A DNA stretch of 64,000 nucleotides from the NCBI GenBank assembly GCA_004022145.1, contig RCNU01000002.1; one strand, written 5' to 3'. Origin of the DNA: Paecilomyces variotii. Lineage: Eukaryota. This document shows, piece after piece, positions 48,673-51,330 of this stretch. The translations under genes and the position numbers were made by a program. Within the stretch, counting starts at the first letter, position 1. Each line of letters opens with the position of its first letter. The notes under the pieces are model-generated. The model was not told where the DNA came from. It made no database searches and saw only the letters and a program-made list of their open reading frames with translations.

Positions 48673-49679
48673 ATGTCTAATGATCGCACGGCATGGCGTA
48701 ATGTCTTTATCTACGACGGTTCGACTGGCACCTCTCTAGGTGGCGTGCGTCAAAATGGTTCAATAACTGAGGCCGTCTTCCTTTGGATGCTCACCTACGT
48801 CCTGATACCTTCAAATCACGCACTGCGTGTTATATCACGGACCACTCAGCAACCGCTCTTTCCCACGAACAGTCCCCTTCGGACGGGGGACTACGACGTC
48901 TACTCAGCTGCTGGTGTGTATCTCTTACATCCAAATATATCTATATGACCTTTTTTTTTTTTCGCTAACCATAACAGGCAATTTTACGCTGACGGATGAA
49001 GTCCCTGCTTCACGAATTATCTCACACAGCGTAAGCGGTCGAGAAGAATCTTTTCGCGACGATGTACGTAAACGAGATCAAGGATGTGTCTTATCCGGCA
49101 CCAAAAACACAATGGCGTCTTTCGGCCAGTGGCGCGGTTTTGAAGCCGCTCATATCTTTCCTCTAGAGAAAGAGCTTCTCTGGATAAAAGAAGATTGTCA
49201 GCGGTGGATCACGGATATAGATGACGAACGCGATACCAAAATCAACTCGCCCCAGAACGGCCTACTTCTACGAGCTGACATTCACTCTCTGTTCGACGAT
49301 TATCTTGTCTCTGTAAACCCCGACGTGAGTGACCTCTTAGAGAATTAACATTCGTCTTCATTACTAAGATTGTCTTTCTTTTGAAAAGGATAACTACCGC
49401 ATTACAGCATTTAATACCGACTGGGCAGGTCTTGATGGAAGGATACTGGACCCCGCGTGCCGCGACCCTGCTCATCCTCACCGTGCATGTGATGAGTTGC
49501 TCCGATGGCACTTCAGACAGGCAGTTCTCGCTAATATGAAGGGACCTGGAGAGCCTATTTTTGAACACGACTTCCCGCCGGGGACTGACATGGTCGGAGA
49601 AATACGAGAAGGCCCTAAAGCACAGGAACGCTTTGAGCTGGAGCTTGCCTCAAGGTTGTATGGTCATACAACAGACTAA
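48673..49679 (+). CDS. HNH endonuclease domain protein (HNH_2-type), 3 exons, ~292 aa
   Basis: Exons 48673-48913, 48978-49324 and 49389-49679 are in frame. Motifs FRDDVRKRDQGCVLSG, FEAAHIFP, INSPQNGLLLRADIHSLFD and LLRWHFRQAVLANMKG. Confidence 0.88.
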
Positions 49680-50077
49680 ATCCCGTTACGCCTAAAGCCC
49701 GTTGCTGCTTAGTATACAATTATTAATTAGCTTGTATAGATACCTAAATTACTGCCCACATTGATTCCTATCTTAGACAATGGCCTCCGATGTCATATGG
49801 TAGTATCAGAGTAGTTATCACGTGATACAAGCAAATCGCCACCCTCGATGTGGCGATGCCGTGTGGCCAGGCGGGTCGATGATAGTTTACCCCGGTTGAG
49901 GAGACTTCTCGATTGTTCGGAACAAAAGATTAGCGCCAGGGCTCCTATCTTATCAAATAATTAGAGTAGATGGCTCGTGTCAGTTTCTCTACCATAGACG
50001 GAGAAGGACATCCAGTTTCTAGACGGAGTGTGAGGCATAATCTATTCTTGTGGCATAACTCGACAGGATAACCCTTT

Positions 50078-50265
50078 CTAAACCATGGCCTTCTCTTCCT
50101 CCAGTGACTTGTTCACAGAGTTGCGGCGTCTGAGATACACAACGACAAGCGCCACAACAGCAAGCAGTACAGCAATCTTAGTGAAAGGTACAGGACTCTC
50201 CGTCTCTTGGACGGGCGACGTCTGTTCTCCTGGCTTCTCTTCGGAACTGGGTATTTCTTCGTAGT
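50078..50265 (-). CDS. cypB: Putative alternative last exon of cypB encoding a linker, TM helix and short cytosolic tail
   Basis: Donor G|GTAGCC at 50349/50348, branch GCTGAT, acceptor AAG at 50268-50266. The 188-nt exon is in phase and reads DYEEIPSSEEKPGEQTSPVQETESPVPFTKIAVLLAVVALVVVYLRRRNSVNKSLEEEKAMV*. Confidence 0.75.
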
Positions 50266-50328
50266 CTTATGTCACAAGCGCAATATATCAGCGATTCCAG
50301 AGCAGCAAGAGATGGATCTCAAAAAGGT

Positions 50329-51330
50329 TTAGAGCTCATTGTGGCTACCTTTCTCGGGCTCAGACTCCATCTCAAGTTCACCGCTCTTGACGATCTTGAC
50401 CTCCTCGGCGGGCTTGTCTCCGGCGCCCTTGGGGACATTCTCGATCTTGTCGACAACGTCGTAGCCCTCAAGGACCTCGCCGAAGACGACGTGACGTCCG
50501 TCGAGCCAACTAGCAGGAGACATTAGGGCTTTCGTCCAAAGCTGCATAAGCGCCATGCGGAGTACTTACGGGGTGGCAACAGTAGTGATGAAGAACTGAG
50601 AGCCGTTGGTGTCCTTTCCGGCGTTGGCCATGCCTACACAAAGTCAGTATGTCGACATCATCTGTGGACGTGCAAGGGACATACTCAGGAGACCCTTCTT
50701 AGTGTGGCGGAGCTTGAAGTTCTCGTCGGGGAACTTGGCACCGTAGATGGACTTTCCACCAGTTCCTACAGATCTGTCAGTATCTATTTGACATCGTAGA
50801 ACTTTAATAAGGAGAAGGATTCCTACCATCTCCCCGGGTGAAGTCACCGCCCTGGATCATGAACTGCTTGATAACACGGTGGAAGGTAGATCCCTCATAA
50901 CCGAATCCCTTCTCGCCAGTAGCCAGAGCTCTGCACAGCGTACCAGTCAGTGGTTATCCATTACGAAATCATATATAGGCGAAGAAGATTGTCATACCGG
51001 AAGTTCTCAGCCGTCTAGGTAGTAAAGTAACCGTCAGCATATGATACGGAAGTAGACACTGATGTCGCCTTGCTTACCTTAGGGACGGTCTTGCCGTATA
51101 ATCCCAGGACGATTCTTCCCAATGGCTTTCCACCGTGCTCAATATCGAAGAAAACCTGCAGTAAATCCCGTCAGCACATAGCCTTCGCTATCGATAGATC
51201 TTCGAATTCAGTGCCATACCTTGTTCGTAATCTTCGGTCCGCGAGGCTGCTTCGTTTCGTCCGCCTGAGCCAGCGCGAAGCCGACAACAAAGACGAGGAA
51301 GAACGAGAAGAAAAGCCTCCTGAAATTCAT
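50329..51330 (-). CDS. cypB: Cyclophilin B, ER peptidyl-prolyl cis-trans isomerase (soluble HNEL isoform; many short exons)
   Basis: Signal peptide [96 protein letters not shown]-terminal HNEL*. Confidence 0.96.

Follow-up and report, generated by a model that had tools for sequence, protein, structure and literature searches.

The cyclophilin B gene of Paecilomyces variotii (cypB-like), which encodes a peptidyl-prolyl isomerase of the endoplasmic reticulum (ER), was analysed in a window of 64,000 nucleotides (nt) from contig RCNU01000002.1 of the assembly GCA_004022145.1. The last intron of this gene probably constitutes a two-way switch of the C-terminus, by which either a soluble form ending in HNEL or a membrane-anchored form is produced. 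It is regarded here as a real and ancient intron-retention switch, in which the HNEL form is the dominant one in this species.

The gene is read on the minus strand from an ATG at position 51330, and its products were derived by placing the exon borders by reading and translating the joined exons. The short product comprises 211 amino acids (aa) from seven exons and has the C-terminus GSHNEL, with the stop codon at 50331-50329, and the long product comprises 267 aa after the removal of 50348-50266, with the stop codon at 50080-50078. Both forms carry the Pfam domain PF00160 (Pro_isomerase) at residues 39-194 (175.8 bits against a gathering cut-off of 21.7; E-value 1e-51), in a match that spans profile positions 1-157 of 159. 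The motifs holding the catalytic and cyclosporin A-binding set of hCypA, given in passages of PMC8192932 as R55, F60, M61, Q63, A101, F113, W121, L122 and H126, are present in the translation, as read by motif without an explicit alignment to hCypA. Hydropathy is the basis on which a signal peptide is predicted (Kyte-Doolittle, 19-residue window; 2.0 at residues 6-24), and the N-terminus is the same in all the CypB-like relatives. By its C-terminal tetrapeptide of the HDEL/KDEL type, HNEL, the short form would be classed as an ER-resident cyclophilin B.

The Gly codon of the short ending (G|GT) straddles the donor of the alternative intron, so that the retention peptide and the stop codon lie inside the intron, the first 20 bases of which complete, after the exonic G, the reading Gly-Ser-His-Asn-Glu-Leu-stop. 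Excision of 50348-50266 links the codon G|AC in phase 1 to the exon 50265-50078, which measures 188 nt including the stop codon. The original prediction, made from the sequence of the window, had placed the HNEL tail inside this intron and an in-phase 188-nt transmembrane (TM) exon behind it, and by sequence and translation all its coordinates are exact. The intron has the donor GTAGCC at 50348-50343, a branch-like CTGAT at 50291-50287, 22 nt from the intron 3' end, and the acceptor AAG at 50268-50266. The claim that this donor is weak is borne out by comparison within the gene, since all six constitutive donors have G at +5 where the alternative donor has C; likewise, the constitutive acceptors are YAG in all six cases, whereas the alternative acceptor is AAG. 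Because of the missing G at +5 and the AAG acceptor, the alternative intron is probably spliced inefficiently, which is consistent with the RNA of this species having assembled into the retained form (see below). The donor cannot easily be strengthened, because its positions +2 to +6 also encode Gly-(Ser/Ile/Thr)-(His/Arg).

The tail of the 267-aa protein (DYEEIPSSEEKPGEQTSPVQETESPVPFTK-IAVLLAVVALVVVYL-RRRNSVNKSLEEEKAMV) comprises, in this order, an acidic and Pro-rich linker, a hydrophobic helix, RRR and a 17-residue end, ...EEEKAMV. The hydropathy profile of the long form has just two peaks, at residues 1-24 (signal peptide) and 227-253 (helix), with the 19-residue Kyte-Doolittle maximum of 2.42 at residues 231-249. 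When the exon was subjected to 20,000 mononucleotide shuffles, 4.5% of the shuffled sequences were open and 0.07% were open with a hydropathy window of at least 1.6. Because the long form has a signal peptide, one C-terminal-proximal helix and RRR on the predicted cytosolic side, it is predicted to be a type-I single-pass membrane protein; the short helix suits membranes of the early secretory pathway. Retrieval by the C-terminal Lys, as had been suggested, is weakly founded: a dilysine signal of the KKxx or KxKxx type was rejected, as E-K-A-M-V has Lys at -4 only, which also holds for most of the aligned long-form relatives. A di-arginine signal need not be invoked for RRR, for which the positive-inside rule is explanation enough. 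The C-terminal [DE]-K-x-hydrophobic-(x)-[VAL] end matched none of the sorting signals testable by sequence, and this conserved motif is put forward as a candidate sorting signal.

A search with the long form retrieved many fungal cyclophilin B models, and these fall into two sizes. Among 153 fetched CypB-like proteins, which form a convenience sample, 76 lack a hydrophobic tail and end in x-x-[DE]-L, and 68 carry such a tail, the remaining nine being long forms by eye that the regular expression had mis-binned. From a reading of the tails, a Gly precedes the terminal x-x-[DE]-L by one to four residues in 76/76 short relatives, and Aspergillus nidulans cypB (P0096) has the C-terminus KGSHNEL, the same as the short form of the window. 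Long forms are present in the Aspergillus sections Fumigati, Nigri, Flavi and Circumdati, in many Penicillium species, in Thermomyces, Exophiala, Fonsecaea and Cladophialophora, and in Candelaria, Candelina, Pleopsidium (lichen fungi being among these sources) and Claviceps, so that the groups represented are the Eurotiales, the Chaetothyriales, lichen fungi and Claviceps. Short and long forms of the same species were found in A. fumigatus (209 and 262 aa), A. niger (212 and 271 aa) and A. flavus (208 and 272 aa), as well as in A. lentulus, A. udagawae and A. tubingensis, and every one of these pairs parts exactly after K/E, before the Gly preceding the retention peptide.

Alignment of 20 long-form tails reveals a single order of elements, namely a variable linker rich in acidic residues, Pro, Ser and Thr, the motif S-[LI]-x-K, the helix, a basic cluster, a short spacer and the C-terminal motif. 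A hydrophobic stretch of 17-19 residues occupies the same place in all 20, which come from four classes, and in about three quarters of them, by reading of the alignment, a basic residue lies no more than two places from the end of the helix; two or more neutral residues precede the basic ones in A. fischeri, A. fumigatus, Pen. ucsense, Pen. CMV, P0081 and P0115. The C-terminal motif, read in the window (50081-50095), in the proteins P0031, P0038, P0124, P0127 and P0201 and in the environmental loci L001, L006 and L064, takes the forms EKAMV, EKSEV, ERSIV, EKSVV, EKSIV, EKSLV and EKSMA, with EKEFDA in Penicillium.

Metagenome contigs were scanned with a short-form relative as the query; 80 loci were kept and all were screened for the end of the domain, 14 being positive, and those ending in a retention peptide were analysed further. 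In L001, L006, L064 and L076 the open reading frame (ORF) ends G-I-[HR]-x-[DE]-L-stop, a donor lies inside the Gly codon (GTATTC in L006, GTATCC in the other three), and an in-phase downstream helix exon ends in EKSLV, EKSMA, EKNMA and QKHLA, respectively. The TM-coding frame after cypB, the conservation of which in relatives had been named as a test of the switch, is thus present in four environmental loci and in many genera. None of the six donors compared at this intron (the window, these four loci and L002, with GTACCC) has G at +5.

Both splicing states were encountered among the contigs of relatives. The 1064-nt contig L001 has an uninterrupted cyclophilin ORF with the intron retained and the helix exon downstream, and looks like a mature mRNA keeping just the alternative intron, while the 1028-nt L005 carries a spliced long form of 274 aa. 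The locus L002 retains the intron (...GTRDDL-stop), and exactly that interval is removed in its close relative L004. Two further long forms, P0081 (288 aa) and P0115 (285 aa), are encoded on contigs of 1131 and 1116 nt, which are too short for an intron-bearing gene and are therefore taken to be cDNA-sized; the contig of P0116 itself was not recovered in the metagenome scan, where its best match was 76% identical. As a separate observation, the cDNA-sized, basidiomycete-like contigs L012 and L020 specify proteins of 308 and 321 aa that resemble cyclophilin B and have helix tails read straight from the domain without a retention peptide. These two may come from other fungal phyla and hint that the anchored form may be the older state.

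The same two contigs, along with the occurrence of TM forms in the Chaetothyriales, Claviceps and lichen fungi with no short model among those fetched, could be taken to mean that the long form is the intended product and the HNEL form a translated, incompletely spliced pre-mRNA without selected function. This is very unlikely, given that the opening codons of the intron keep the reading G-x-[HR]-x-[DE]-L-stop in each of the 76 short models as well as in L001, L002, L006, L064 and L076; if the intron were always removed, the intronic peptide would not be maintained. Moreover, the retained form is the high-depth assembled mRNA in this species, and full-length short forms come from Logan and Joint Genome Institute (JGI) contigs of about 1 kb. 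The cloned cypB cDNAs of A. nidulans and A. niger are reportedly of the short form as well.

Four runs (X1, X2, X3 and X7) were examined as assembled Logan contigs, in which minor variants are dropped. Joints for all six constitutive introns, including both of those beside the 17-nt micro-exon, occur in the RNA-derived contigs of X3 and/or X7, an X3 contig linking 50931 to 51078 via 16 letters that match exon 3. Record 22 of X7, the one clean RNA contig of this species (2497 nt, depth 1686), splices out 50510-50569, 50634-50684 and 50766-50825 and is unbroken from 50509 down to 49600 and beyond, with the alternative intron retained. Thus, the abundant mRNA keeps the intron and extends past the alternative exon, so that polyadenylation upstream of 50265, which the original prediction had named as evidence that would speak against the switch, is not what is seen. 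Record 14 of X3 begins at 50042, 36 nt past the long-form stop, and also keeps the constitutive intron 50510-50569; it may represent pre-mRNA or DNA. The contigs of X1 and X2 were rejected as splicing evidence, being unspliced across the whole gene, 90-95% alike and DNA-like, and derived from a relative. In that relative the alternative exon differs by at least three substitutions (two Ser to Pro, one synonymous) with no insertion or deletion (indel) among the matches listed, and the 478 nt after the long-form stop by at least 36 substitutions and at least 12 indels; the exon is therefore far less diverged than the sequence past its stop. In the same four runs, a high-depth joint at 50736-50838 skips 101 nt of the window and has 40 unrelated letters between its flanks, and is most likely due to paralogous cyclophilin transcripts that match the conserved flanks rather than to a splice of cypB.

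Deposited annotation contains both readings of the gene. The search with the 62-aa tail retrieved a 267-aa P. variotii protein whose 90% cluster has eight members; P0004 (267 aa; several P. variotii strains, GenBank) is identical to the long product of the window, and the short one is matched exactly by P0007 (XP_028487916.1, 211 aa; P. variotii CBS 101075), the two having been deposited via different annotation pipelines. The switch had been described as hidden, which does not hold for the exon, as it stands in public annotation. The more distant Paecilomyces proteins P0006 and P0008 are of equal length, without indels, and differ at 13-14 positions of the 62-residue tail and at 10-11 positions within residues 1-205. 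KAK9549750.1, named 'Peptidyl-prolyl cis-trans isomerase B, variant 2 [Aspergillus fumigatus]', is a long form, and some Swiss-Prot fungal PPIB entries may list 'long' and 'short' isoforms. It was also observed that the Penicillium and Aspergillus models P0064, P0070, P0075, P0059 and P0102 read part of an intron as coding (e.g. ...KGSRDELLMRGLLKEYDDY...), which indicates that predictors handle cypB inconsistently.

The points that weigh against a switch in this species concern its RNA, the deposited models and the sequence of the tail, besides one environmental lineage considered further below. The joint 50349^50265 was found in none of the contigs of X1, X2, X3 and X7, although assembled contigs bound abundance loosely. 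In A. fumigatus, Logan is named as a source of the short form but not of the long one, so that long transcripts may be scarce in the Eurotiales, and the 267-aa models in P. variotii may be ab initio predictions without RNA support. When the tail was searched with phmmer against 1.84 billion representatives, no homologue was found beyond a single match, P0009, which was set aside as spurious, since it is a tandem-repeat protein of 1447 aa for which the search gave no matched stretch. In the absence of any sequence homologue of the tail alone, its conservation is architectural and not at the level of sequence. Word-index searches with the 62-aa tail among longer proteins (one protein among 133 candidates) and with residues 196-267 of P0001 among proteins of near length (one among 59) recovered the Paecilomyces cluster alone; this type of search is too insensitive for a tail made of a linker and a helix.

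On these grounds it could be argued that P. variotii makes soluble HNEL protein only, that the helix frame is a relic or a 3' untranslated region (UTR), and that the 267-aa models are artefacts of predictors choosing a weak intron. The retention of the intron in X7, the lack of a joint in four runs, the C at +5 and AAG acceptor beside canonical sites in six of six cases elsewhere in the gene, the 211-aa model of strain CBS 101075 and the errors of predictors that read partly through the intron (P0064, P0070, P0075) are all compatible with that explanation. It is nevertheless considered unlikely. In Paecilomyces lineages whose tails show 13-14 differences over 62 residues and no indel, the frame has remained open and in phase and still encodes the helix, and it recurs in four other loci and many genera; an open helix frame arises in very few shuffles (the 0.07% given above); spliced long forms occur on cDNA-sized contigs of relatives; and divergence is far lower within the alternative exon than beyond its stop. 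The claim that one gene makes two forms of the foldase by intron retention is sustained as to the conservation of both endings in distantly related Pezizomycotina and the presence of both states in the contigs of relatives, but not as to the spliced junction in the contigs of this species. We infer that the spliced form is made in P. variotii also; it has been seen so far in contigs of relatives.

The environmental lineage in question is that of L002 (743-870) and L004 (638-720), in which the spliced tail (AHRGPGPH...ETL) has no membrane helix; judging from these sequences, the switch in this lineage would remove the retention signal only, and a membrane anchor is not universal. Together with the great variability of the linker sequences, this lineage lends some support to the idea that splicing was selected for loss of the retention signal, releasing cyclophilin B to later compartments or to secretion, with the helix as a lineage-variable add-on. 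Such an origin is quite unlikely, for all 20 aligned long forms, from four classes, have kept the helix together with the basic cluster and the [DE]K-x-hydrophobic-[VA] end, and the tail features are found in four of the five environmental loci. A switch between a soluble and a membrane-anchored form is thus retained as the preferred interpretation.

The coordinates of the gene, its exons and the elements of both endings are collected in Table 1. Downstream of cypB lies a convergent ORF at 48806-49345 on the plus strand, which encodes an HNH_2 endonuclease domain (PF13391, E-value 3e-17), and the ORF at 49368-49676, also on the plus strand, has no Pfam match. As the X7 contig extends from cypB across the region of the convergent ORF, the two genes probably meet or overlap at their 3' ends.

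Table 1. Features of the cyclophilin B gene in the window and the evidence on which each is placed
Feature	Position	Strand	Evidence
cypB-like gene, long-form coding span	50078..51330	-	translation; PF00160
Predicted N-terminal signal peptide, about residues 1-23	51262..51330	-	hydropathy; putative cleavage site
Exon 1	51220..51330	-	exon 1-2 joint in X3 and X7 contigs
Exon 2	51078..51155	-	joints in X3 and X7
Exon 3, 17-nt micro-exon	50998..51014	-	X3 contig
Exon 4	50827..50930	-	X7 record 22
Exon 5	50685..50765	-	X7 record 22 and X3 joint
Exon 6	50570..50633	-	X7 record 22
Exon 7, last exon common to both forms; terminal G of split Gly/Asp codon	50349..50509	-	X7 record 22
Short-form ending G-S-H-N-E-L-stop	50329..50349	-	translation
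Alternative (mostly retained) last intron, 83 nt	50266..50348	-	sequence; retained in X7 record 22
Alternative last coding exon, 61 codons after split codon plus stop; 3' UTR in short-form mRNA	50078..50265	-	translation; GenBank models P0001-P0006, P0008
Predicted hydrophobic membrane helix I236-L250 (IAVLLAVVALVVVYL)	50132..50176	-	hydropathy
RRR directly C-terminal of helix, positive-inside	50123..50131	-	translation
C-terminal E-K-A-M-V, local copy of the conserved [DE]-K-x-hydrophobic-(x)-[VAL] end	50081..50095	-	alignment of tails

In the mechanism proposed here, cyclophilin B would enter the ER by way of its signal peptide. The weak last intron would by default stay in the mRNA, and translation would cover the six codons spanning the donor and reach the stop, giving a soluble lumenal enzyme of 211 aa with an HDEL-type tail. 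Tails of this type keep soluble proteins in the ER through retrieval by the HDEL receptor, and on this established knowledge the short form would be retrieved in the same way. Removal of the 83 nt would delete the HNEL tail together with its stop and add a tail of 61 residues (linker, a helix some 15-19 residues long, RRR and 17 residues on the cytosolic side), so that the spliced product would be a type-I membrane protein of 267 aa whose catalytic domain faces the lumen. Where this product resides, and any control of the choice between the two forms, for which the original prediction had suggested stress, are matters of inference. Published passages place cypB in the inducible unfolded protein response set of A. 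fumigatus and describe it as raised under secretion stress in A. niger, in both cases at the level of the whole gene.

The Aspergillus cypB genes (A. nidulans AN4467, A. fumigatus Afu4g07650 and A. niger An04g02020) are orthologues that share the signal peptide, PF00160 and the HDEL-type end, and long TM models are deposited for Aspergillus also, so that no difference at the gene level separates them from the Paecilomyces gene. Full-text literature searches and passages of the papers found gave no description of an HDEL/TM isoform switch in cyclophilin B, and the passages available from the surveys of fungal peptidyl-prolyl isomerases (PMC1618848, PMC8192932) treat cypB as a single soluble ER form and contain no two-isoform design.

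Three known systems offer comparisons. In Saccharomyces cerevisiae PTC7, as described in passages of PMC3597508 and PMC7491326, the retained and the spliced mRNAs are both functional and differ in localisation, one of the products has a membrane helix, and the arrangement has long been conserved. The PTC7 intron differs in being in frame, without a stop, and in encoding an N-terminal helix, whereas the cypB intron encodes a C-terminal retention peptide and a stop, with the helix in the exon that follows; the two also belong to different enzyme families and concern different compartments. As with PTC7, both coding outcomes are conserved across species in cypB; with regard to the presence of both mRNA forms in one organism, the retained form was seen in X7 and the spliced joint is absent from the four contig sets, both forms together having been seen in relatives only. 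A second system is named by the published title 'Cryptic peroxisomal targeting via alternative splicing and stop codon read-through in fungi' and bears on the abstract of PMC4207609. In it the tripeptide of peroxisomal targeting signal 1 (PTS1) reportedly apportions glycolytic enzymes between the cytosol and the peroxisome, and the likeness to cypB lies in a 3'-terminal splice choice that swaps the extreme C-terminal sorting signal of an enzyme left otherwise unchanged. PTS1 switching differs from the cypB case in that it involves neither the secretory pathway nor a membrane anchor. In the Saccharomycotina, ScCpr4 has a putative TM domain and stands as a heat- and tunicamycin-induced, membrane-associated cyclophilin of the ER and secretory pathway beside soluble ones (passages of PMC1618848), with the difference that the secretory cyclophilins there are encoded by separate genes and are not isoforms of one; it is a speculation that these genes arose by subfunctionalisation of such a switch. 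The cypB switch adds one more, apparently ancient, case to a known kind of switch; both its products are in sequence databases, and no account of it was found in the literature searched.

A wider reading is offered tentatively. In it, a dual-coding donor shared throughout the Pezizomycotina, whose bases also encode Gly together with an HDEL-type signal and stop, would have been kept weak for hundreds of millions of years, setting a ratio of soluble to tethered enzyme that stress could possibly tune; the membrane form, with a conserved cytosolic sorting code of its own ([DE]-K-x-hydrophobic-[VA]-COOH) behind a short helix of ER/Golgi length, would serve at another station of the secretory pathway, and the budding yeasts would have replaced the switch by separate genes.

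In practical terms, annotation pipelines assign the 211-aa or the 267-aa product to cypB more or less at random, and the resulting inconsistency is carried into orthology tables, predictions of secretomes and membrane proteomes, and proteomics databases. The species concerned (Aspergillus, Penicillium and Paecilomyces) are used for protein secretion, and the C-terminal motif of the long form presents a candidate sorting signal that can be tested. Alternative splicing that is both functional and conserved counts as rare among fungi (passages of PMC3597508), and the cypB switch, if true, would add another ancient functional case, one that acts on a core folding enzyme of the ER.

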